A stretch of 64,000 nucleotides of DNA from an uncultured delta proteobacterium (GTDB lineage Bacteria > Myxococcota > UBA727 > VGSZ01): assembly GCA_963775425.1 (NCBI GenBank), contig CAVZJB010000016.1, positions 512,001-576,000 on the forward strand. The letters are read 5' to 3'. Shown one piece after another: positions 29,746 to 42,116 of the stretch (the stretch's first letter is position 1; the number at the start of each line of letters is the position of its first letter). A program made the translations under genes and the position numbers. The notes below the pieces were generated by a model. That model was not told the origin of the DNA. It did not search any database and worked only from the letters and a program-made list of their open reading frames with translations.

Positions 29746-30453
29746 CTACTCGAGGTCGCAGGCGTCGACGACGCCGGCGTCGCCGCGGGCGAAGTTGCAC
29801 TCCGCGAGGCGCTCCGGCAGCAGCTCGAGCGTGAACTGCACCTTGATGTTTCCCTCGAGGAAACCCTTGTTCTCGTTGTCGCTCTTCTTGGCGCCAATCT
29901 CGAGGGTGGCGGACAGCTCCGGCGACGTCTGTTCGACGACGAGGCGCGCCGTGCGATCGGACGCCACCTGCGCGACGCGGTCGGGGTAGCGATCCGCCTC
30001 GCTGATCACGGGCGAGCGGAGGTGGATGGTGACGTCGCTGATGAAGGGGAGCACCTCGGGCGGCAGCGAGCCGTCGCTCTTGACGAGCGTGATGTTCTTG
30101 TCGCCCTCGCGGATGACGTTTCCACGGCTGACGTCGACGAGCAGCTCGTCGCCGCGCGCGATGTCGTCGAGGATGGCCTGACGATCGGCCGCGGAGAGCG
30201 TGCGCAGGTCGACGCGCGGGTCGAACACGGCCTGGCTGAACATCAGGTGCAGCACCACGGCGTCGGTGGCGCGATCCTTGAGCACGGGGGTGTCGCCGCC
30301 CGCGTCGGCGACGTACGCCGTCTCGTCGAGCCAGGCCGCGGCGGTCCCGCCGATGTCGAGCGCGCGCCCGCCGAAGTCGCCGCTGACCACCACGGGGCTG
30401 CACCCCGAAAAGAGCGCGCCGGCGACGACGAGGACGCCCGCGGCGCGCTTCAC
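29746..30453 (-). CDS. Hypothetical lipoprotein
   Basis: Lipobox FSGC. Confidence 0.7.
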   Translation of the reverse strand: MKRAAGVLVVAGALFSGCSPVVVSGDFGGRALDIGGTAAAWLDETAYVADAGGDTPVLKDRATDAVVLHLMFSQAVFDPRVDLRTLSAADRQAILDDIARGDELLVDVSRGNVIREGDKNITLVKSDGSLPPEVLPFISDVTIHLRSPVISEADRYPDRVAQVASDRTARLVVEQTSPELSATLEIGAKKSDNENKGFLEGNIKVQFTLELLPERLAECNFARGDAGVVDACDLE

Positions 30454-31067
30454 CCTGCGCCTCCCTCGTCGTCACGCTCGCTGCCCGCGGGGGCGGCGTC
30501 GGGCGCGGGCGGGGTGGCGACGTTCTCCGCTGCACCCTCGGCGAGGAGCTCCTCGCGCAGCTTGGCGCCCGCCTCGTGCCCCGCCTGCTGGATCGAGACG
30601 CCGGCGTCGGGCGCCTGCGCCACCGCGCGCACCAGCTCCTTGGCGCCGCGCTGCACGCGCACCGTGCACAGAAACGTGTCGCCGATGCGCGAGACGCTGC
30701 TCGCGACGATGAAGGCGGCGTCTTTGAACTTCGACGCGACGGCGTCGGGGCACGGGGCCTCGGTGCAGGCCGCGAGCTCGGCGCGCACGGAGGGCTCGTC
30801 GACGACGTCGAGGCCGCTCGTCAGCGCGACGGCGTCCCGCAGCCGGGCCGACAGGTCCTCGACGTTGAGCCCGGGCGCGTCGACGAGGTGCACGGCGGCG
30901 GGCGGCGCGTCGATCTTCGCGGCGGCTTCGACCTTCGGCTGCGGCGCGGCGGCGGGCGCTTCGGCCGCGGGGCCGGCGCACGCCGCGCCCCCGAAGAGGC
31001 CGGCCGCGAGCACGGCGGCGGAGAGCGCGGCCGCGCGGAGGGTGGAGACGATGAGCGGGAGGGGCAC
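30450..31067 (-). CDS. Hypothetical lipoprotein (CsgG/TolB-N-like alpha/beta pattern)
   Basis: Lipobox AAC; CTEAPC; IVASSVSRIGDTFLCTVRV. Start approximate. Confidence 0.55.
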   Translation of the reverse strand: MPLPLIVSTLRAAALSAAVLAAGLFGGAACAGPAAEAPAAAPQPKVEAAAKIDAPPAAVHLVDAPGLNVEDLSARLRDAVALTSGLDVVDEPSVRAELAACTEAPCPDAVASKFKDAAFIVASSVSRIGDTFLCTVRVQRGAKELVRAVAQAPDAGVSIQQAGHEAGAKLREELLAEGAAENVATPPAPDAAPAGSERDDEGGAG

Positions 31068-31146
31068 GGGCGAAGCATCGAGAGCGCCGGGCGTCCGGTC
31101 AAGCCCCGGGCGCGGCGGGGCCGGCGGGCCGCTGTATCGTCCGTCG

Positions 31147-31944
31147 ATGCCACGGCTCGACGGGCGCGCGCGGATCGTCACGGGGATCGTCACGGGGCTC
31201 CTCGCCGCCGCCTCCGCAGCCTGCGCCACCCCCGCTGCCGGCGCCACCCCCGCGGCGCCGCCCGCGCGAGCTGCGCCGACCGTGGTGGGGCCGGGCCATG
31301 ACGCCGTCGCACGCGCGCTCCCGGCGGCGCTGCGGCGGCTCAGGGCGCACGGCTTCGACGTCGATGCGCTCGCGCGACACACCCGCGTCGAGGTCCACCC
31401 CACGCTCGAGGGCTTCATCGCCGTCACCGGACAGGACGTGCCCGAGCTGCGCGCGTGGACCACCTACGACGTCGTGCACCTCGCACCGCTCCAGGCGTGG
31501 CGCCACCACGACGACGCGCACGTCGTCACGCGCCTGACCCACGAGCTGTGCCACGCCGCGCTCTATCAAGCGTTCGGCTCCGCGGCGCGCGCCCGAGACG
31601 CGCGCATCCCGGTCGCGTTCGCCGAGGGCGCCTGCTCGGTGGTCGCCGGCCAGGGCGGCGAGCGCGCGCCGCTCGAGGTGGTGCTGCGGCACGCGCCCGC
31701 GAACGCCCTCGATCGCGCGTTCTTCTCGATCGACCCCGCCATCGCCTACGCCGCCGCGCACCACGCGATGGCCTGGGTGCAGGCGCGCGCGCCGTCGTCA
31801 CCGTCGCTGTTCGCCGACATCATCCGGCGCGCGGCGAAGGCCGGCGGGCCCGGCTGCGTCGCGCGCGCGTTCGCTGCGGCAACCGGCATCGATCTCGCCG
31901 GGCTCTGGCCGGTGTTCGTCGACAGCCTCGGCCGGCGCACCTGA
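31147..31944 (+). CDS. Lipoprotein with gluzincin-like (peptidase MA) motif
   Basis: Lipobox AAC; THELCH followed by FAEG. Confidence 0.65.
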   Translation: MPRLDGRARIVTGIVTGLLAAASAACATPAAGATPAAPPARAAPTVVGPGHDAVARALPAALRRLRAHGFDVDALARHTRVEVHPTLEGFIAVTGQDVPELRAWTTYDVVHLAPLQAWRHHDDAHVVTRLTHELCHAALYQAFGSAARARDARIPVAFAEGACSVVAGQGGERAPLEVVLRHAPANALDRAFFSIDPAIAYAAAHHAMAWVQARAPSSPSLFADIIRRAAKAGGPGCVARAFAAATGIDLAGLWPVFVDSLGRRT

Positions 31945-31959
31945 AGATGCCGCCATAGC

Positions 31960-32172
31960 GGCGCGCCGTCCCCCTCTCGCGGGCGCCGATGTCCGGGGCG
32001 GTGCCCGCGAACAGCGCGGGGTCGTCGTCAAGAGATCCAGGCCGATGTCCGGCTTGAGGTCGCGGTGCACCACGCCCGCGAGGCGGACCCCCGGGAGCAG
32101 CGGGGGCTCCTCCCCTGCGGCGCTCGGCGCACCGCCTGCGAGGACGTCCTGGGTTTCGGCGGGGCGCGTCAC
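31960..32172 (-). pseudogene. Ser/Thr kinase gene remnant
   Basis: LLPGVRLAG joined directly to VVHRDLKPD with no other kinase subdomains. Confidence 0.55.
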
Positions 32173-32268
32173 GGCCCAAGCATCGAGCGTGGTGAGAGCG
32201 CCGCAAGCGCGGCCCGTTCGAGGCACACGTGTCCGCGCGTCCGTGCGGCGCGCGCTATGGTGCACACC

Positions 32269-33444
32269 ATGCCCTCGCGATCCGCGTTCGTACACGCGGC
32301 CGACGTCGTCGAACGCGCGCTCGATGGAGCCGCTTGCGGCGCCGCCCGCGTCGACGCCCGCTTCGGCAGCGCCGAGGTCTCGTTCGCCGGGCTGTCGCCG
32401 GCGCAAGCGGTCCACGCCGAGGCCCGCTTCGGCGCGCTCCCCCCAGCGGCCGCGCCCGACCCGGCGGTCCGGGTGCGGGTGGTGCGCGCGGCGCGCGAGG
32501 GCTTCGTCGAGATAGACACCCGCGGCTGGGACAACACCATGGCGCTCGAGCACGCGCCCGACGTCGTCGTCGTCGTGGGCCGCGACTTCGTCGCCCGCGT
32601 GGCGCCCGACGCACACGAGGCCACCGTGGCCACCTGGCTCGACGACGAGCACGTCATCGCCGCCCTCGAAAACCCGCTGCGTGTGCTGTCCGCCTACCTG
32701 TGCCTCGCGCGCGGGGGCGCGCTCCTGCACTGCGCCGGCCTGGTCGACGGCGGGGCGGCGCGGGTGTGCTTCGGCCCCTCCGGGATCGGCAAGTCCACGG
32801 TGGCGGCGGACTGGCTCGCCCGGGGCCGGAGCCTCCTGAGCGACGAGCTGTGCGCGCTCGAGCCCGAGGGCACGGGCTACGTCGTGGAGCAGCTCCCCTT
32901 CGCCGGCGACGTCGCCGCCGCCGTCGTCCCCGGCGCCCGCGTGCCGCTCGCGGGGCTCTCGCGCCTCGACCAGGGCCCGGCCTCGCGCGTGGACCCCATG
33001 GGCAACGCCGCCGCCGTCGGCGCCCTCCTCGCGTGCGCGCCGTTCGTCAACGTCGATCCGTTCCGCCGCGACGCGCTCTTCTCCTCGCTCGAGCGCCTCG
33101 CGCGCGCGCACCCGGTGTCGCGCCTCACCCTGCGCCTCGGCGACGATCCGCGCGTCGTCCTCGCGGGGATCGAGGTCGCTTCGCGCTTCGCGCTCGCCCA
33201 CGGCGTCCGCTACCGCGTCGTCGACGGAGAGGCGCTCATCGTGTTGCAGACGTCGGGCGAGGCCGTGGGGCTGAACGGCACCGGCTCGCGGGCCTTCGAC
33301 CTCGCCGCGCGCGGCGCCTCGTTCGCGGCCATCGTCGACGCGCTCGACGGCGAGCTCGACGTCGAGCGCAGGACGCTCGAGAGCGATCTGCGCAGCTTCT
33401 TCGGCGAGCTCGTCGGCGGCGGCCTGCTCGAGGTGCGCGCGTGA
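32269..33444 (+). CDS. HPr-kinase-like P-loop protein fused to a C-terminal PqqD/RRE domain
   Basis: LLHCAG, Walker A GPSGIGKST, LSDE; last ~90 aa GVRYRVVDGEALIV..LNGTGSRAFDL..LESDLRSFFGELVGGGLL. Alternative ATG at 32257. Confidence 0.85.
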   Translation: MPSRSAFVHAADVVERALDGAACGAARVDARFGSAEVSFAGLSPAQAVHAEARFGALPPAAAPDPAVRVRVVRAAREGFVEIDTRGWDNTMALEHAPDVVVVVGRDFVARVAPDAHEATVATWLDDEHVIAALENPLRVLSAYLCLARGGALLHCAGLVDGGAARVCFGPSGIGKSTVAADWLARGRSLLSDELCALEPEGTGYVVEQLPFAGDVAAAVVPGARVPLAGLSRLDQGPASRVDPMGNAAAVGALLACAPFVNVDPFRRDALFSSLERLARAHPVSRLTLRLGDDPRVVLAGIEVASRFALAHGVRYRVVDGEALIVLQTSGEAVGLNGTGSRAFDLAARGASFAAIVDALDGELDVERRTLESDLRSFFGELVGGGLLEVRA

Positions 33445-34466
33445 GCTACGCCGACGTCATCGAAAACGCCTGGAACAAGAACGTGCTGCTCGTCGTGCTC
33501 TTCGAGCTCACCTACGACTGCAACTACGACTGCGTCTTTTGCTACAACGATCGGTCCCTCGCGGGGCGCAAGCTCGAGCTCGACGAGTACCTGCGCGTGC
33601 TCGACGAGCTCGCCGCCCTGGGCGTGTTGAACGTGGTGCTGTCGGGCGGCGAGCCCATGGTGCACCCCCACTTCTTCGACATCGGGGCCGCCGCCAAAGA
33701 GCGCGGCTTCGTGGTGCGTGTGAAGACCAACGGGCACCTGCTCCGCGGGGAGGCGCTCGAGCGGATGATGACCGACGTGGAGCCCCTCGCCGTGGAGGTG
33801 AGCCTGCACGGGGCCACCGCCGCCACGCACGAGAGGCAGACCAGGGTGCCCGGCAGCTTCGAGCGGCTCGTCGACAACCTGCGCGAGGCGCGCGACGCCG
33901 GGCTCCGCGTGCGCATCAACAGCACGCTCACCCGCTTCAACGAGGGCGAGCTCGACGCCATGTTCGCGCTCGCCGCCGCCCTCGGCTTCCCGCTCACGGT
34001 GGACCCGGACGTGACGCCGCGCGACGACGGCGATCGCTCACCGCTCGCCCTCGCCGCCAGCGACGACGCCCTGCGCGCGCTCGCCGGCCGGGGGCTCGTG
34101 CCCGGCGTGCACCACGAGGCGTGCGACACGCGCACCGACAAGCACTGCGGCGCCGGGTCATCGGCGCTGTGCATCGACCCGGTGGGCAACGTCTACCCCT
34201 GCGTGCAGTGGCGGCGCGCGGCGGGCAACGTGCGCGATGGCGCGCTGTCCGCCCTGTGGCGAAGCTCGCCCGTCCTCGCCGAGGTGCGCGCGCTCACCGT
34301 CGACGTCAAACGCATGGTGCAGTCCCACGACGCCGGCGCGTTCATGGGCTTTTGCCCCGGAACGGCCGAGAGCCTCGGCGGCGACCCGCTCGCTCCGTAC
34401 CTCAACGCCCGGCGTCGCAGTGACGCCGCGCTCGTGGTGCGCGGCAAGCTCCGCGTGCTCGACTGA
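33441..34466 (+). CDS. Radical SAM peptide-maturase-like enzyme (PqqE-like) with Twitch/reduced SPASM domain
   Basis: CNYDCVFC (CxxxCxxC), SGGEP, TNG, CGAG...GNVYPC; GTGA-coupled to the RRE fusion. Confidence 0.92.
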   Translation: MSYADVIENAWNKNVLLVVLFELTYDCNYDCVFCYNDRSLAGRKLELDEYLRVLDELAALGVLNVVLSGGEPMVHPHFFDIGAAAKERGFVVRVKTNGHLLRGEALERMMTDVEPLAVEVSLHGATAATHERQTRVPGSFERLVDNLREARDAGLRVRINSTLTRFNEGELDAMFALAAALGFPLTVDPDVTPRDDGDRSPLALAASDDALRALAGRGLVPGVHHEACDTRTDKHCGAGSSALCIDPVGNVYPCVQWRRAAGNVRDGALSALWRSSPVLAEVRALTVDVKRMVQSHDAGAFMGFCPGTAESLGGDPLAPYLNARRRSDAALVVRGKLRVLD

Positions 34467-34474
34467 CGACGCGC

Positions 34475-34663
34475 TCAGCTCGAGATAGGTCCGCTCGGAC
34501 ACTGGCCGGGGTTGCCCTTGGCGGGAGGCGCCGGCGCGCACACCGCGGCGATGGCCTCGATGCGCTCGCGAAAGACCACGCGCGGCGCCGCGTACGGCTT
34601 CTTCTCGGGGTTGCCGCGGTTGTCCGGCGCTGTGTCCGGCGCGACCTGGGTGGGGGCCTTCAA
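34475..34663 (-). CDS. Putative RiPP precursor peptide (62 aa)
   Basis: TTG start overlaps the C25 gene stop (TTGA). Sequence MKAPTQVAPDTAPDNRGNPEKKPYAAPRVVFRERIEAIAAVCAPAPPAKGNPGQCPSGPISS, with a KKPYxxPxV leader motif. Confidence 0.75.
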   Translation of the reverse strand: MKAPTQVAPDTAPDNRGNPEKKPYAAPRVVFRERIEAIAAVCAPAPPAKGNPGQCPSGPISS

Positions 34664-37600
34664 CGCCGCCTCCGGCGCAGCAGCAGCGCGAGCCCGAGCG
34701 CGAGCGCCGCGAGGAGCGGTGCGCCGCCGCTCTGCGCGCAAGACGCCGAGTCCCCCGTGGAGGCGAGCGGCACGGTGGGGTCACCGAGCAGCTCTTCGGT
34801 GCCGAGGAGCCTCGCGTCGCCGCCGCCGTCGACGTACCCGCGCCCGGCGTCGACGAGGACGGCGCCCACCGTCCCGCCCTGCGAGAGCCGCGCGAAGAGC
34901 TGCGCCGCGAAATTGCCGGCGAGCGCGTCGCTGGTCTTCGTCGTGGGCGCGAGCGCGACGACGGCGCCGCCGGAGCGGATGAGGTCTTCACCGAGCCCCG
35001 GGAACGGAGCCAGCTCGAAGCGGTTGATGAGGCAGGTGAGCGCGAGCAGCGCCCACGGGCCGCGCGCCGCGAGCGCGTCCTCGTCGCGCGCCATCAGGAT
35101 GCCGTCGTTGCCGATGCGGTCCATGCCGCCGTGGCCGACGAAGGTCAGGAGGGACGAAGGCGCGAGGGCGTCGAGCACCGCGGCGCGCGTCTGATCCAAC
35201 GACGCGCCACCGGCCGACACCAGCGACGACGAGACCGTCACCTGCTGCCGCAAGCTCGCCGCCTCGGCCGCGAACGCGGCGCCGTCGCGCGGGCCGTCGG
35301 CGAGGAACGTGGCCGACGCTGGCCCGGCGAAGGCGCGCGCGCGCGCGAGGTAACCCTCGACGTCGGCCGCGCTGTGCGCCGGGATGCGGCCGACGGCGAC
35401 GTCGGGGACCCCGTCGCCGTCGACGTCGCCGGCCAGGGAGTCGGCGGCGGCCAGCCCGGCGCCGCCGGTCTGCTGGAGCAGCGGCGGGATGAAGTCCTCG
35501 TGCCGCCCTTGCACGTCGCGATAGTCGACGTCGCCGTCGCCGACGAAGACGGCGTAGCGCGGCGCGGGGCTCCAGCGCGCGACCGCAGCGGCGAGGAACC
35601 GGCGCAGCGCGCGGGGATCGGGGTCGCCGGCCGCGTACCGATCAAAGACGTCCTGCACGTCCACCACGCGGCTCACGAGCCCGCGCTCCGCGTGCCACGC
35701 GGCGAGGTCCGCCGCGGCGTCCAGGAACGCGTGGGGCGCGATGACGACGACGTCGGCGCCGCCGGCGGCGAGCGGGAGCGCGGGCCCCGCCGCGGGCACC
35801 ACGAGCGCGGGGCGCGCGCGCCCGTCCGCGAGCGCGAACACGCCGGCCGCCGGCAAGCGCGCGCGCAGCGCACCGTCGACGACGCGCGCGCCGGCGAGCC
35901 GCAGGAGCCGCCCGCCGTCGACGCGGTACAGCCACGACGACGCCGGCGCCCCGGCCAGCGCGACGACGTCCCCCGCCCCGCCCGCGAACACGCGCGGCGC
36001 CGCCGTGAGGGTGCGCTCGTAGTCGACGCGGACTGCGTCCAGGAACAGGGCGTTCATCGACACGCCGGGGTCGAGCACGGCGTCGACGGCGACGTGGACG
36101 TGGCCGCCGGCGACCGCGTCGGCGGGGAGGTCCAGCGAGCGCTCCACGCGGGCCACGCCGGAGAAGAACACGTCGCCGGCCGCGACGCCGTCGACGGTGA
36201 CGCGGACGTGGTGGTCGTCGGGCCTGCCCGCGTCGGTGGCGCCTTGCAGGGCGAGCGTGAGCCGCGGGGCGGCGCCGGCCTCGACGGCGCCGGGCGCGTC
36301 GACGTCGGTCTCGTAGTGGTCGTAGCCCGCGTAGCCCGCCGCGAGCGACGCGGCGAACCAGACGTCGGCGTTCGGGTCGAGGTCGACGCTGGTGCCGGGG
36401 AAGACGTCGTCGGCGCGCACCGCCGTGGCGCGGGCGCTGCGGCGTGTCACCGGCGCGACGCCTGGATCGGCGTCGACGACGCCCGCGCGCGCGCCGGCGG
36501 CCTCGGAGAGGAAGTACGTGCGCGCCGCGGCGAACGGGCTCGTCGAGCCCCGGCCCATGAAGACGAGCGCGCCGTCGCGGACGTCGACGGGGACGGCGAG
36601 CCCGTCGCTTTCGACCGCGATGTGCCCGTGGTCCGCGTCGTCGACGATGCGCTGCAGGGGGCGCTGAAGCAGCAGCGCGATCTGCGCGAGCGGAACGCCG
36701 ACGACGCCGTCGTCCTTCACGAGCACGCGCAGCCGCGCGGGCGGGCGAGCGCGCAACGGCGCCCCCGCGGACGGCAGCGCGGCGGGCGCGGCCATCATCG
36801 CGAGCTGCGGTGCGCCCGAGACACCGCTCCATTGCGGCGCGCCCCCGGCGAGGCTCGGCCCCCGCGGCAAGACCGCGCGCACGTCGACGACGTCGTAGGG
36901 GCCGTGCGCGGTGGCGTTGCCGCGCACGTCGTGCTCGGTGATGACGTAGGCCACCGCGCCGAACGCGGCCGCGTCGTCGTCGTGCACGGCGTAGGCGTGG
37001 CCCTCCGCGTGCATCGGGCTCGGCACCAGATCGCCGACGGGGGCGCGCTCGCCGTCTGCGCCGACGCGCTCGACGGAGAACCCGAGCGTGCCGGCCTCGC
37101 CGGCGGTGCGCCACGACACGTCGACGCCGCCGGGCGAGCGCTCCACGGCGACGTCGACGACGGACGCGTAGGTCTCCAGGCCCGCGGTGACCGCCAGCTC
37201 GCACAGCGGACCGAAGGTGAACGTGGCGCGCCCCTGCGTGCTGTTGCCGGTCTCGTCGACGTATTGCGCGGTCGTGCCCGCGGCCGTGGCGCCCGTGACG
37301 ACGATGCGCTCGCCCGCGGACGCCGGCGTGACGTCGACGTCGTAGGCGATGAGCGCCGTGGCCCCCGCTATGACGACGCCGGGGTTCCAGACCACGTCGC
37401 CCGCGACGCCCACGGCGGGGGACGTGGCCGTGCCCTGCGTGGCCGCGAGCGCACCGGCGAAGGACACGCCCGCCGGCACCGTCGACGTCACGGTGTGCGT
37501 GGCGGAGAACGTGATCGGCAGCGACGTCGGGTTCCGCACGCGCACCGTGACCGTGAGCGTCGACGTGCTCCCGGGCGCGGGCGGGTTCGGCCCGCCCTTG

Positions 37601-38637
37601 GCGCGTACGAATTGCTCGACGATGGGCTTCGCCGGCGCGGCGCCGCTGTCGCTCGGCAGGTAGAGGCGGAACGCGCCGGGCTCCGGTTGGTTGCGCGGGC
37701 TCGGCGGGTTGCCGCTGCCGGCCACCGCAGCGAATTGGCCTGCCACGGAGTAGGTAATGACGTTGGCGGCGGCGCCGCCGGCCTTGCGGACGTCGGCGGC
37801 GGCGGTCCACACGCCGTAGTTCTGCGCGGTGTTGTCGCTGGTGAACGGCGCCGACGCGTTGCTCCGCCAGACACCGTTGCCCGACACGTTCGTGAACGCC
37901 TGCGAGAAGCTCACGTTGCCGGTCAGCGTGTAGCTCGTGCCGGCCGCGCCGTCGGCGTCGAAGTCGTTGGAGGCGGCGGTGCAGCCGGAGGTCACCCAGG
38001 GGTGGAACGTGTTCACCTGCTGCGACGCGGTGGTAGGCCCGAGGCCGAGATAGCTGTCCGCGTACACCGGGATCTCGACGCCGCCTGCGCCGGGATCGCC
38101 GTCGTGGGCGCGGACGCCGTAGCCGGCGGTCTCGTCGCCGTTGTTGTTGGGATCGATGCGGAGCTCCCAGTGGCCCGCCGCGGGGTTTTGGACCGTCCCG
38201 AACAGCGCCGACCACGCGTTATCGACGCAGACCGCGGGCGTGTTGGCGTTGCTGCACACGACGGTGCCCCCCACCTGGGCCCCGCTCGGCGCAAACAGCG
38301 AGTAGGCCACCGACGTGTTGAACCGGCGGCCGGTGAGCAGATCGCGCGTGCCCTCCCCGTTGCCGCCGCGGCCGACGTCCGCGTCGAAGACCTCCACGAC
38401 GAGCTGCGAGAGGCCGGGCGGCACCTCGATGAAGAAGCGGTAGCTGTCGTTCAACGCCGGGGCCTGCGCGGTGCCGACCCAGTCGCCGCTCACGACCTGC
38501 TCGCCCGCGCCGTTCAGCCGCAACAGCGCGGTGGTGCTCGTGGGGTTGCTCGACGCAGCGGACGCCGCCGCGCACCACAGCGCCGCCACGGCGGGCGCGG
38601 CGCGGCACAGGGGGATCGGGAGCACAACGGAGCGCAC
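34660..38637 (-). CDS. Large secreted C25 (gingipain-like) cysteine peptidase with MYXO-CTERM-like anchor
   Basis: Signal peptide, beta-rich N-terminal domains, WRTAGEAGTLGF motif, VFVGDG, AVGRIPA, FVGHGG (His), LTC (Cys), LLGDP, tail SCAQSGGAPLLAALALGLALLLRRRRR. Confidence 0.88.
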   Translation of the reverse strand: MRSVVLPIPLCRAAPAVAALWCAAASAASSNPTSTTALLRLNGAGEQVVSGDWVGTAQAPALNDSYRFFIEVPPGLSQLVVEVFDADVGRGGNGEGTRDLLTGRRFNTSVAYSLFAPSGAQVGGTVVCSNANTPAVCVDNAWSALFGTVQNPAAGHWELRIDPNNNGDETAGYGVRAHDGDPGAGGVEIPVYADSYLGLGPTTASQQVNTFHPWVTSGCTAASNDFDADGAAGTSYTLTGNVSFSQAFTNVSGNGVWRSNASAPFTSDNTAQNYGVWTAAADVRKAGGAAANVITYSVAGQFAAVAGSGNPPSPRNQPEPGAFRLYLPSDSGAAPAKPIVEQFVRAKGGPNPPAPGSTSTLTVTVRVRNPTSLPITFSATHTVTSTVPAGVSFAGALAATQGTATSPAVGVAGDVVWNPGVVIAGATALIAYDVDVTPASAGERIVVTGATAAGTTAQYVDETGNSTQGRATFTFGPLCELAVTAGLETYASVVDVAVERSPGGVDVSWRTAGEAGTLGFSVERVGADGERAPVGDLVPSPMHAEGHAYAVHDDDAAAFGAVAYVITEHDVRGNATAHGPYDVVDVRAVLPRGPSLAGGAPQWSGVSGAPQLAMMAAPAALPSAGAPLRARPPARLRVLVKDDGVVGVPLAQIALLLQRPLQRIVDDADHGHIAVESDGLAVPVDVRDGALVFMGRGSTSPFAAARTYFLSEAAGARAGVVDADPGVAPVTRRSARATAVRADDVFPGTSVDLDPNADVWFAASLAAGYAGYDHYETDVDAPGAVEAGAAPRLTLALQGATDAGRPDDHHVRVTVDGVAAGDVFFSGVARVERSLDLPADAVAGGHVHVAVDAVLDPGVSMNALFLDAVRVDYERTLTAAPRVFAGGAGDVVALAGAPASSWLYRVDGGRLLRLAGARVVDGALRARLPAAGVFALADGRARPALVVPAAGPALPLAAGGADVVVIAPHAFLDAAADLAAWHAERGLVSRVVDVQDVFDRYAAGDPDPRALRRFLAAAVARWSPAPRYAVFVGDGDVDYRDVQGRHEDFIPPLLQQTGGAGLAAADSLAGDVDGDGVPDVAVGRIPAHSAADVEGYLARARAFAGPASATFLADGPRDGAAFAAEAASLRQQVTVSSSLVSAGGASLDQTRAAVLDALAPSSLLTFVGHGGMDRIGNDGILMARDEDALAARGPWALLALTCLINRFELAPFPGLGEDLIRSGGAVVALAPTTKTSDALAGNFAAQLFARLSQGGTVGAVLVDAGRGYVDGGGDARLLGTEELLGDPTVPLASTGDSASCAQSGGAPLLAALALGLALLLRRRRR

Positions 38638-38794
38638 GGTCGGGATGTTAGTGCGGGCGTCCAGCCCCGCCCATGAAGAAGCCCGGGGTGCCTCGCTCGG
38701 CGACGAAGAGGGGCCCGATGCATCCTGCGCCGGGGCGTTTCGGGGGCGGAGGGACGGCCTCGATTCCGCGCGCGCGGTGCTCTAGCGTGACCGC

Positions 38795-39637
38795 GTGAAG
38801 CTCCCCTTCGGCGCCGGCCGCGTGCTCGGGTCGCTCGCCGTCATGTCGCTCCTGCTCGCCGCCCTCGCGCGGCCACCGCTGCCCGGCGTCGCCCGCGTCG
38901 TCGTGGTGCTCGTCGTCGCGGCGCTCGCGGCGCTGTCGGCGCGCTCGAGCCTGCTGCTCATCGCCGCCCGCCGCGGGCTGCTCGTCGTCCAGGAGGGCGC
39001 GCCCCGTCACCGGCTCCTGCTCGTGAGCGTCCCCGCCGCCGCCGCGGGCGCGGTGCTCGGGGCGCCGCTGCTGGTGTTGCCGGCGGTGCACGCGCGCTTC
39101 GAGGTCCTCGTCGCCGGCCTCCTCGGCGCCCTCGCCGGCGCGGGCCTCGCCCTCGCCGACGACAGGCCCAAGGGCCCCCGGCCCACCACGCGCTTTTCGT
39201 GGCTGGTCCTCGACACGGCGCTGCCCGCGGGGATCGTCGCCGCGTCTGTGGGCGTCTGCGTCGCGTTCCTGCGGCTGCGCAACCTCGACGTCGTCACGCC
39301 CGGCGAGCTCGCCCGCCACCTCGGCATGACCACGTTCGCGTACGCGCTCCTCCTCGGCTTGGCGGGCTTCTTCAAGGCCTACGGCGAGCAGTCCGCCGGC
39401 CTCGTCGTCGTCGAAAAGACGGCCGCGTCCCTCCCCGGCCCCGTGCTCGCGGGCGCCGCCCTCGGCGTCACCCTCTTGTTCGCCGTGCCGCACCTCGCGC
39501 CGGCGCTCCCGCTGCGCGACGCGCTGATCCTCAAGGCGGCCGTCGGCCTCGTCGTCGGCGGCGGCCTCTCGTTGCTCGGCGCCCTTCAGGGAGCGCGGGC
39601 AGCGTCGCTCGGTCTCAAGCGGCGCAAGGCTAGCTGA
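38795..39637 (+). CDS. Hypothetical multi-pass membrane protein
   Basis: About 8 hydrophobic segments. Confidence 0.6.
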   Translation: MKLPFGAGRVLGSLAVMSLLLAALARPPLPGVARVVVVLVVAALAALSARSSLLLIAARRGLLVVQEGAPRHRLLLVSVPAAAAGAVLGAPLLVLPAVHARFEVLVAGLLGALAGAGLALADDRPKGPRPTTRFSWLVLDTALPAGIVAASVGVCVAFLRLRNLDVVTPGELARHLGMTTFAYALLLGLAGFFKAYGEQSAGLVVVEKTAASLPGPVLAGAALGVTLLFAVPHLAPALPLRDALILKAAVGLVVGGGLSLLGALQGARAASLGLKRRKAS

Positions 39638-40517
39638 CGACGCGGTTTCTGCCGCCCTGCTTGCCTTCGTAGAGCTTCTCGTCGGCGCGCTCGATGAAGC
39701 TGTCGACGCTGTCGCCCTTGGCCATCTGGGTGACGCCCATGGAGATGGTCACCGGGATGATGTTCCCCTCGAACTCGTAGCGGGTCTCCTCGATCATCTG
39801 CCGGATCTTCTCGGCGAGGATGACGCCGCGGTCGGCGGGCGTGTCCGGCAGGAGGATGGCGAACTCCTCGCCGCCGTAGCGGGCGAAGCACTCCTCCTTG
39901 CGGATGTTCTTCGTCGAGATGGAGATGGAGAGCTTCTTCAACACGAAGTCGCCGGCGAGGTGCCCGTACTCGTCGTTCACCTTCTTGAAGTGATCGATGT
40001 CGAACATGATGAGCGCCAGGGGTCTTTGATAGCGAGCACAGCGCGCCATCTCGCGATCGATGAACTCGAGGAAGTAGCGCTTGTTGTAGGTCTGCGTGAG
40101 GCCATCGATGATGGCCATCCGGTAGATCTCTTCGTAGTAGAGCTGCTCGATGTTGTCGCCGTCGATGAACTTGAAGATGACGCCGCCGACCTTGACGAAG
40201 TCACCGTTTTTGAGCTTCCGCCTCGACGTCAGCTCCTCGTCGTTGACGAAGGTGCCGTTGGTGGAGCCCATGTCCTCGATGTAGTTGCCGCCGGCGCCCG
40301 CGTAGATCTTGCAGTGCGTGCGCGACACGTTGTCCATGTCGCAGACGATGCCGTTGTCGGGGCCGCGGCCGATGGTGGTCTGCACCTTGTCGAGCGGGTA
40401 CTTGCGCCCGATGTCCTTGCCGTAGATCTGCACGAAGCAGGGGATGCCACCGGCAAGGCGCTTGTCGGCGATCTTGCTGACCTGGGAGACGCGGGTCTTC
40501 TCTTCGCGGGTGACCAC
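39630..40517 (-). CDS. FHA-GGDEF diguanylate cyclase
   Basis: IGRG..SRTH..DMGSTNGT; DIDHFKKVND; RYGGEEF. Confidence 0.93.
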   Translation of the reverse strand: MVTREEKTRVSQVSKIADKRLAGGIPCFVQIYGKDIGRKYPLDKVQTTIGRGPDNGIVCDMDNVSRTHCKIYAGAGGNYIEDMGSTNGTFVNDEELTSRRKLKNGDFVKVGGVIFKFIDGDNIEQLYYEEIYRMAIIDGLTQTYNKRYFLEFIDREMARCARYQRPLALIMFDIDHFKKVNDEYGHLAGDFVLKKLSISISTKNIRKEECFARYGGEEFAILLPDTPADRGVILAEKIRQMIEETRYEFEGNIIPVTISMGVTQMAKGDSVDSFIERADEKLYEGKQGGRNRVVS

Positions 40518-40529
40518 GGGGGGACCGTA

Positions 40530-42020
<1,491 letters not shown>

Positions 42021-42116
42021 GCGGGGAATGTGCCCCGAGCCGCCGCCCCGCGTCAATCAAGCTCCCGGGGTGCTTCCCGCATTGACGTCGACAAGCCCCC
42101 GCGTGATCCCGCCCGC

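Follow-up and report, generated by a model that had tools for sequence, protein, structure and literature searches.

Two kinds of described pathway come closest to the locus reported here. In the linear polyphosphorylated peptide (LPP) pathway of Bacillota (genes LppA/K/B/S/D/N), a recognition element for peptides that are ribosomally synthesized and then post-translationally modified (RiPPs), hereafter RiPP recognition element (RRE), binds a leader of the pattern YxxPxVLxHQxIxFETxxS, core residue Ser3 is polyphosphorylated by the HprK-like kinase LppK, and cleavage after Thr-1 by an SpI-like peptidase follows (Popov et al., Nat Commun 2026, PMC13381572). That report describes LPP as restricted to Bacillota and the YxxP type of leader motif as bound by the RREs of both lasso and LPP systems. 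In paeninodin-type lasso clusters, as reviewed in PMC8498205, an HprK-like kinase phosphorylates the side chain of the precursor's C-terminal serine. Here, we analyze a four-gene cassette in a 64,000-nucleotide stretch of DNA from an uncultured member of the Myxococcota (contig CAVZJB010000016.1, positions 512,001 to 576,000; this whole stretch is referred to as the window). The cassette encodes a fusion of a predicted HprK-like kinase with a PqqD-type RRE, a radical S-adenosylmethionine (rSAM) enzyme, a 62-amino-acid (aa) peptide, and a secreted protease of family C25. Judging by sequence comparison, the LPP pathway and the HprK-like kinases of paeninodin-type lasso clusters are its closest characterized counterparts. 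We consider it probable (roughly 70%) that the cassette is a reduced RiPP-type system that cross-links and phosphorylates its peptide, with the C25 protease as a functional partner.

The likeness to LPP lies in the PqqD-type RRE, in a kinase predicted to be HprK-like, and in a YxxPx[VIL] leader whose register matches as far as a cleavage site of small residues. In the acidobacterial relatives of the cassette, it extends to an archaeal-type SpI-like peptidase, an NTP_transf_5 nucleotidyltransferase, and a surface-polysaccharide context. The differences are equally plain. The window adds an rSAM/SPASM enzyme and a C25 protease, whereas the LPP product is linear and its pathway has no cross-link-forming enzyme; the core of the window's family contains cysteines and is near-constant, whereas LPP cores are variable; and kinase and RRE are fused in the window. 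The window holds no counterpart of the SpI peptidase LppS, counterparts of LppN and of the MsbA-like exporter LppD are missing from the 10 flanking proteins scanned, and the family occurs in Acidobacteriota and in the window's phylum, in contrast to the Bacillota of the LPP report. The view of the earlier note, a first reading of this DNA, that no characterized class has this gene set thus stands for the combination of rSAM enzyme and C25 protease but not for the kinase/RRE core, to which the LPP report (PMC13381572) supplies a characterized parallel. The features of the cassette, in window coordinates, are as follows.

32257..33444, plus strand: kinase-RRE fusion gene, 395 aa (ATG at 32257; second ATG at 32269, the start taken in the earlier note)
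33441..34466, plus strand: radical SAM gene, 341 aa; its GTG start overlaps the TGA stop of the fusion gene (GTGA)
34467..34474, no strand: 8-bp tail-to-tail gap between the rSAM stop and the peptide stop, from the coordinates of the open reading frames (ORFs)
34475..34663, minus strand: precursor peptide gene, 62 aa, with a TTG start that shares bases with the C25 stop (TTGA)
34660..38637, minus strand: C25 protease gene, 1325 aa (Pfam Peptidase_C25)
34663..34749, minus strand: MYXO-CTERM sorting tag with Cys motif, transmembrane helix, and RRRRR tail (TIGR03382/TIGR03901)
34669..34673, minus strand: Shine-Dalgarno-like GGAGG within the end of the C25 gene, 5 nucleotides (nt) upstream of the peptide TTG
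34765..35748, minus strand: C25 catalytic domain with the His1169/Cys1202 dyad, from homologue alignment and AlphaFold2 (AF2) model

With 73% G+C in the window, open frames alone are uninformative, so the real frames were chosen by codon-position G+C content (GC1, GC2, and GC3 for the three positions); gene calling in high-GC loci required GC3 > GC1 > GC2. GC3 is 0.95, 0.95, and 0.96 for the three long genes and 0.89 for the peptide gene, and the frame signal changes at 34660, exactly at the C25/peptide junction. Given this switch and a GC3 of 0.89 in DNA of such composition, the 62-aa ORF looks like coding sequence. A programmed frameshift at the junction was considered and rejected, as the junction lacks a slippery heptamer and has a Shine-Dalgarno sequence and a start codon instead. 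The layout proposed in the earlier note was borne out throughout, namely two convergent two-gene units whose stops are separated by the 8 bp listed above, with the fusion and the GTGA-coupled rSAM gene on the plus strand (ORFs plus PqqD, Radical_SAM, and SPASM matches) and the 1325-aa C25 protein and the TTGA-coupled peptide on the minus strand (ORFs plus the Peptidase_C25 match). The four genes are real, and their association is far beyond chance, since the peptide has 14 close and 492 representative relatives and about 80 other genomes contain the same set of genes.

The tight tail-to-tail spacing is itself conserved, as 37 of 67 convergent peptide/rSAM pairs lie at −14 to +23 bp from each other. 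A terminator scan of positions 31800 to 39200 returned four sites, none of them inside the gap at 34467 to 34474. With no terminator between the peptide and rSAM genes, the convergent transcripts must overlap, and this could represent a conserved antisense arrangement. In five loci, the peptide and rSAM genes themselves overlap by 4 to 14 nt.

The peptide is composed of a variable N terminus, a leader motif (KKPYAAPRVVFRERIEAIA), and a core ((A)VCAPAPPAKGNPGQCPSGPISS), with Cys42, Cys55, and the C-terminal Ser62 as its residues of note. In the protein collection searched, we found 14 close relatives with 61 to 82% identity, among which A39 is invariant, and a profile of the peptide matched 492 representative proteins at E ≤ 1e-3 (64 at ≤ 1e-10). 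Among the 150 profile matches listed, nearly all are 43 to 117 aa long. After the variable N terminus, the family follows the consensus [KR][KR]x[YW]xxP[RQ]I[LI]xRExLEAxAAV, and the window peptide carries the corresponding P-Y24-A-A-P27-R-V-V, i.e., [Y/W]xxPx[VIL]. The core is near-constant across the family (C-A-P-x-P-P-A-K-G-N-P-G-x-C-P-x-G-P-I-S-S). Two cysteines are present in 86 of 86 peptide tails and a C-terminal serine in 84 of 86, the two exceptions being one tail at a contig end and one ending in glycine. The window peptide has no Asp or Glu after Glu36. Scans of domain libraries yielded no curated family covering the peptide, the rSAM enzyme, or the kinase. Taken together, the GC3 value, the Shine-Dalgarno sequence, the start codon, the 492 relatives, and the conserved rSAM and kinase neighbors indicate that the small ORF is the genuine precursor of the cassette, as the earlier note had supposed.

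To see the gene set in other genomes, we scanned for the peptide with one genome per species. This yielded 97 encoding loci, of which 80 were kept, nearly all from Acidobacteriota and one labeled Myxococcales. Genes were counted where the flank was long enough, which meant 2.6 kb or more on the downstream side of the peptide (68 loci) and, for upstream genes, 4.2 kb or more on the upstream side (65 loci); locus proteins were clustered with a 65% coverage rule. An rSAM gene was found in 63 of the 68 loci and was missing from 5; of the 63, 50 have it tail to tail beside the peptide, 6 immediately upstream, 1 immediately downstream, and 6 at another place in the locus. A kinase gene was likewise found in 63 of 68. 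In 20 of the 65 loci, the gene immediately upstream of the peptide is a C25 gene, and 16 more have one at another place within 8 kb (36/65). These counts agree with the proposal that the four genes make up a conserved peptide-maturation cassette. The usual acidobacterial order begins with a polyprenyl glycosylphosphotransferase, C25, and the peptide, and a second module often stands between C25 and the peptide, made up of a nucleotidyltransferase, HprK_rel_A, a lasso-B2-like protease, PqqD, and an unknown 489-aa protein. Within the phylum of the window, the same gene set occurs in rearranged orders, and 9 of 301 sampled genomes match the peptide, two of them weakly. As side observations on the second acidobacterial module (e.g., in L016, L022, and L047; range L015-L094), it also includes a sigma-54 activator and NTP_transf_5, and conserved ORFs of 46 to 56 aa near it could be further precursors.

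Most relatives have two further genes, one for an SpI-like leader peptidase (45 acidobacterial loci and 2 relatives in the window's phylum) and one for a nucleotidyltransferase. Beside the window cassette there are neither nucleotidyltransferase nor polysaccharide genes, and the earlier remark that no transporter is evident nearby held, as a scan of 10 flanking proteins revealed no exporter or transporter. The flanking genes of the window (a PlsB-like acyltransferase, an HExxH lipoprotein-like ORF, a 280-aa membrane protein, and a GGDEF protein) have no counterpart in 86 related loci, so the cassette here consists of just the four genes. A search of the window's genome (94.55% complete) with TIGR02228 gave 0 SpI matches, the control being positive in 8 of 14 genomes; an acidobacterial SpI-like homologue used as query found no match in it either, and lasso B2 gave 0 matches. 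The sole NTP_transf_5 gene of the genome is unlinked, on another contig. From these sequence comparisons, the window cassette is a reduced, four-gene member of a widespread family of peptide-maturation cassettes akin to the lasso-tailoring and LPP systems.

The fusion protein combines an N-terminal PEPCK/HprK-like P-loop kinase domain of about 300 aa (GPSGIGKST) with a C-terminal PqqD-type RRE of about 85 aa. The RRE is recognized directly (PqqD, E = 3.8e-8, aa 332 to 392, above the Pfam cut-off), while the kinase part is faint by sequence (HprK_rel_A, 24.6 bits versus a cut-off of 200; HprK_rel_A/B both far below their cut-offs). In an AF2 model built on 39 homologues (pLDDT 89.6), Foldseek matched the N-terminal part to ATP-PEPCK (E = 1.9e-8) and to HPr kinase 1knx (1.1e-4), and the C-terminal part to the complex of TbiB1 with its leader (5v1v; TMt 0.86, rmsd 2.0, 34% identity). 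TbiB1 with leader is also the nearest solved RRE relative by sequence (9e-7). Invariant across the 39 sequences are the P-loop residues G174/G177/G179/K180/T182 (GxxGxGK[ST]T), the preceding H159, and the following D197. Both the predicted fold and the constancy of the P-loop, His, and Asp speak for a PEPCK/HprK-like kinase. Among the 62 called kinase genes, none but the window's is joined to an RRE; the 56 adjacent kinase/RRE pairs are separate genes, most with a 4-nt reading-frame overlap. The fused form also occurs in 2 of 5 database homologues, and unfused kinase homologues carry a precomputed Pfam match, PF27840.

We propose that this RRE would bind the leader at P-Y24-A-A-P27-R-V-V and present the peptide to the two cytoplasmic enzymes, the rSAM enzyme and the kinase, a step suggested by homology and by a predicted complex. 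The RRE domain-peptide complex reached an ipSAE of 0.51, versus 0.00 for the best control; of 157 solved complexes, 116 reach the mark applied, as do 2 of 215 mismatched pairs, and values of 0.60 or below are seen in only 18 of the 157 solved complexes, yet in both of the mismatches that passed. Prediction runs agree in at least 92% of contacts, with a partner pLDDT of at least 53, and the prediction may pass through likeness (memory), as a similar complex has already been solved. The predicted complex gives weak support to the binding of the leader motif by the RRE.

The positions modified and cut can be guessed at by laying the LPP and window leaders on each other from the Tyr without gaps. 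In this register, the LPP cut site falls after A39, and the leader would thus be cleaved after the small-x-small sequence A37-I38-A39 to release a 23-residue core, AVCAPAPPAKGNPGQCPSGPISS; this placement follows the LPP register alone. The phosphorylated Ser3 of LPP falls on Cys42, which makes it more likely that the kinase targets the constant terminal serine, as in the lasso systems. We therefore picture the kinase as most likely phosphorylating a serine hydroxyl, most probably that of Ser62, by analogy with paeninodin-type clusters.

With these clusters, the cassette shares a predicted HprK-like kinase with a discrete RRE, precursors ending in Ser, and an RRE closest to TbiB1. It differs from them by having no cyclase, no B2 match in the genome, and no acceptor Asp/Glu, an rSAM enzyme taking the place of the ring-forming enzyme. 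One might read the locus as a degenerate lasso peptide cluster whose cyclase has been lost, given the lasso B1 relationship of the RRE, the YxxP motif of the leader, and the B2-like protease, HprK_rel_A kinase, and nucleotidyltransferase that often adjoin acidobacterial relatives. We give this idea almost no credence: neither a cyclase nor a B2 gene is present in the window, the core lacks the Asp/Glu macrolactam acceptor that a lasso core has at position 7 to 9, and the strong conservation together with an rSAM gene in about 80 genomes means that the cassette is no remnant.

The rSAM enzyme matches Radical_SAM at 4.3e-23 and SPASM at 2.5e-6 and has a short SPASM/twitch-like C-terminal domain. 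All of its NCBIfam matches lie far under their cut-offs, the top one being the mycofactocin maturase (122.7 bits versus 265); by sequence, its PDB matches are PqqE (9e-18), SkfB (2.1e-11), and the CteB-type 5wgg (3.6e-7). Only six cysteines are invariant in 21 rSAM sequences, C27, C31, and C34 of the CxxxCxxC motif and C236, C254, and C305. Given that only the last three are constant downstream of CxxxCxxC, the alignment suggests that one auxiliary cluster is present, held by three Cys ligands. This ligation, together with the solved relatives, among them the thioether-forming SkfB and a CteB-type enzyme, makes a thioether link the most plausible job for the enzyme, which would most likely start from Cys42 and/or Cys55. 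The cassette resembles the systems of the sactipeptide/ranthipeptide maturases SkfB, CteB, and AlbA and of the RRE-dependent rSAM/SPASM enzymes PqqE and MftC in having an rSAM enzyme with a C-terminal auxiliary-cluster domain, a Cys-containing precursor, and a PqqD-type RRE for leader delivery; it differs in that the RRE lies outside the rSAM protein, in the three auxiliary cysteines, and in the kinase and C25 partners.

The relationship to PqqE and the mycofactocin maturase also invites a different account, in which the peptide gives rise to an intracellular small-molecule cofactor similar to PQQ or mycofactocin, the rSAM enzyme performs C-C or C-S chemistry, and proteases excise the product. 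A near-constant core behind a variable leader, a PqqD-like chaperone, and the lack of a transporter among the flanking proteins scanned would all suit such a role. We nevertheless regard it as very improbable, as the rSAM scores fall so far below every family cut-off, no cofactor-dependent oxidoreductase genes accompany the cassette, it sits among surface-polysaccharide genes and genes for a kinase, a nucleotidyltransferase, and a secreted protease, and the distribution is patchy (the 9 of 301 genomes given above).

The earlier note had also likened the cassette to the SynChlorMet type (TIGR04249-04251), with which it does share its types of part (an HprK/ScmC-like and a PqqD-like protein as well as rSAM/SPASM enzymes). 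This assignment did not hold, with scores far below the family cut-offs for ScmC (15.6 bits versus 125), ScmF (88.1 versus 400), and ScmE (76.5 versus 400). To our knowledge, the SynChlorMet cassette is itself uncharacterized.

The C25 protein begins with a signal-peptide-like segment, followed by about 960 unassigned residues, the catalytic domain, and the sorting tag. Peptidase_C25 matches aa 964 to 1291 (E = 1e-43), and a domain search found no family match for aa 1 to 962. Across 25 homologues, the G-H and C of the His1169/Cys1202 dyad do not vary (residues 290 and 323 in the aligned 446-aa piece). In the AF2 model of the catalytic piece (pLDDT 81.6), the nearest Foldseek matches are RgpB (1cvr; E = 2.9e-15, TMq 0.61, rmsd 3.5), Kgp (4e-13), and PorU (7.9e-9), and PorU is the only PDB match by sequence. 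The MYXO-CTERM tail scores above both cut-offs (TIGR03382, 25.3 bits versus 15.85; TIGR03901, 22.2 bits versus 20). The window protein thus resembles the gingipains RgpB and Kgp and PorU in its catalytic fold (TMq 0.57 to 0.61), its invariant His/Cys dyad, and its secreted, surface-attached character. It differs from all of them in the approximately 960 N-terminal residues without a known family and in the linkage to a RiPP-type cassette, and from PorU in particular in its score (80.4 bits versus the NF033707 cut-off of 420) and in carrying a MYXO-CTERM tag rather than the C-terminal domain of the type IX secretion system. On these two grounds, a role as the type IX secretion component PorU was rejected.

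Full-length C25 orthologues with 32 to 38% identity adjoin the peptide in Acidobacteriota. As a side observation, these acidobacterial orthologues (L015-L094) have no membrane tag, and nearly all of them end in ...LLGDPAL-x-L, a P-rich stretch, and G-x-G-E; this C terminus may be a different sorting or processing signal.

Is the protease part of the system? The genome of 8.26 Mb contains exactly one C25 match and one peptide match, and in the window's phylum the pairing of the two genes persists in three gene orders (C25-peptide; peptide-C25; and co-directional C25, peptide, rSAM, and PqqD). Co-occurrence was assessed in one sample of 301 genomes from this phylum (strong peptide matches at E ≤ 3.2e-6, C25 at E ≤ 1e-10; related genomes are not independent), where C25 matches are present in 36 genomes: in 7 of 7 strongly peptide-positive ones (three on another contig) versus 29 of 292 peptide-free ones. 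All five genomes, acidobacterial or Myxococcales, whose peptide locus is free of C25 have two C25 homologues elsewhere, and two such unlinked homologues nest in the peptide-linked clade, in a quick tree with several long branches in which placements are tentative. Eight loci with unlinked C25 paralogues lack the peptide, an rSAM gene, and a kinase gene in their surroundings (all matches at E > 0.1). The most direct connection came from the profile search, which found an in-frame fusion, a C25 protein of 1426 aa that has the peptide as its final 45 residues. Its 90% cluster has 11 members, from several assemblies and with two junction variants, and in all 11 the peptide follows right after the Arg-rich end of the MYXO-CTERM tag, and a second, divergent representative has the same C25 MYXO-CTERM/peptide joint. 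The gene downstream of the fused form is, from a reading of its translation, presumably ribosome-recycling-factor-like.

These findings are difficult to square with the idea that C25 is merely a frequent neighbor, the cassette acting independently and the protease serving an unrelated surface function. Such an idea would account for the 29 of 65 peptide loci without C25 within 8 kb, for the C25 homologues in 29 of 292 peptide-free genomes of the phylum, for the rarity of the cassette at C25 loci collected from metagenomes (see below), and for the intermixing of linked and unlinked C25 proteins in the same tentative tree. It leaves the natural in-frame fusions and the translational coupling of the two genes without explanation, as well as an adjacency kept in three gene orders and two phyla and the presence of C25 in 7 of 7 peptide-positive genomes against a background of 10%, and we judge it improbable. 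The supposition of the earlier note that the protease is linked to the cassette is in line with this, both peptide and C25 being conserved neighbors, and the condition that the note set for its own refutation, a lack of such neighbors around the rSAM homologues, clearly does not hold. From comparative genomics, the link between C25 and the peptide is thus functional but facultative.

As to what the protease does, our working model is that C25 trims or otherwise processes the modified peptide at the cell surface. This model is based on the genome having no match to the archaeal-type SpI or B2-like leader peptidases of its relatives, which leaves C25 as the only protease linked to the cassette.

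The fusions also lend themselves to another interpretation, which we consider the main rival, possible but unlikely: the peptide would be a stoichiometric partner of the surface protease, in some lineages its cytoplasmic tail, and not a free product. Made 1:1 with C25 and cross-linked and phosphorylated at the cytoplasmic face of the membrane, it would regulate, mark, or assist the sorting, activation, or inhibition of C25 or signal its production. The position of the fused peptide behind the MYXO-CTERM tag, in all 11 cluster members and in the second representative, suits this role well, as the Arg-rich end of such tags is cytoplasmic according to PMC11980579 and the rSAM enzyme and the kinase work on that side. 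The overlap of the peptide start with the C25 stop, the single C25 and single peptide of this genome, and the lack of an exporter among the flanking proteins scanned point in the same direction, and a core that is near-constant across two phyla is what one would expect for a conserved protein partner. Fusion and coupling fit this role at least as well as they fit the role of a substrate. The partner interpretation has its own difficulties, in that 29 of 65 loci have the peptide and the enzymes with no C25 within 8 kb, in that cleavage by myxosortase would leave protease and tail on opposite sides of the membrane, and in that the acidobacterial C25 orthologues have no membrane tag and a free, P/G-rich tail end.

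Several observations weigh against our preferred reading, a RiPP-type system with C25 as its functional partner. The first concern the linkage. Besides the 29 peptide loci without a nearby C25, 29 genomes of the phylum carry C25 without the peptide. When metagenomes were sampled from C25 outward, 12 of 78 loci, many of them short, had a nearby rSAM match, and the peptide family appeared in only 1 of the 78, namely in the fused form itself. The contig pieces with the fused form show no rSAM or kinase gene within about 2 kb upstream and 0.9 kb downstream. Others concern the mechanism. C25 is extracytoplasmic while the rSAM enzyme and the kinase must be cytoplasmic, and the 10 flanking proteins scanned include no exporter. 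TTGA coupling and natural fusion imply 1:1 production, which fits a partner better than a protease-substrate pair, and the divergent S24/S26-like peptidase encoded on another contig of the genome (C8) could act in trans. The kinase domain resembles characterized HprK-like kinases weakly by sequence (the 24.6 bits versus 200 given above), the LppK target Ser3 corresponds to a cysteine here, and the type of cross-link, the phosphorylation site, and the cleavage site are drawn by analogy.

The twelve C25-first metagenome loci with an rSAM gene (L124-L127, L130, L132, L134, L149, L153, L162, L163, and L175) are worth a separate remark. Most of them also have a kinase, RRE, or SpI-like gene, none has a peptide of the window's family, and they probably carry other precursor families.

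Our literature search found no description of a combination of rSAM enzyme, PqqD/RRE, HprK-like kinase, and C25 protease, although related clusters could be listed in the supplements of the LPP paper, and it turned up no C25-family protease as a RiPP component. New here are the kinase-RRE fusion, the MYXO-CTERM-tagged C25 protease coupled to a peptide, the C25-precursor fusion proteins, and the minimal four-gene form, with neither an SpI peptidase nor a nucleotidyltransferase in the cassette. If our model is true, the family constitutes an unstudied and widespread class of modified peptides, with 492 representative precursors and common in soil Acidobacteriota, in which radical-SAM chemistry and serine phosphorylation act on a near-constant 23-residue core tied to a large secreted cysteine protease. 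The four-gene form is the smallest natural version among the loci compared and is convenient for heterologous reconstitution, and the natural protease-precursor fusions offer a direct handle on the connection between peptide and protease. If instead the peptide is a partner or tail of C25, the modification of a cytoplasmic peptide would be coupled to the sorting, activation, or signaling of an extracellular protease, and a RiPP-type system would act on or with a membrane-anchored protein rather than make a free natural product.

Some further genes of the window and of the genome deserve mention. Upstream of the fusion gene, the ORF at 30022-31944 (plus strand) is probably over-extended, the likely gene being about its last 250 codons; the C-terminal part is small-lipoprotein-like, with a HELCH (HExxH-like) motif and no Pfam match. 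On the other side, divergent from the C25 gene, 38795-39637 (plus strand) encodes the 280-aa membrane protein, a multi-pass protein of no known family, and 39630-42056 (minus strand) encodes an FHA-GGDEF diguanylate cyclase beside a PP2C phosphatase with a cyclic-nucleotide-binding domain, a signaling pair. On contig C8 (about 386000-401000, locus L120:4421-13518), the same genome has a second cassette, a paralogue of the first, where we found no peptide of the window's family. Its genes, all on one strand, encode an S24/S26-like peptidase (140 aa), a PRMT-like methyltransferase, an HprK-like protein (302 aa), PqqD, an rSAM/SPASM enzyme 33% identical to that of the window, and a 1667-aa Big_13/FG-GAP protein.

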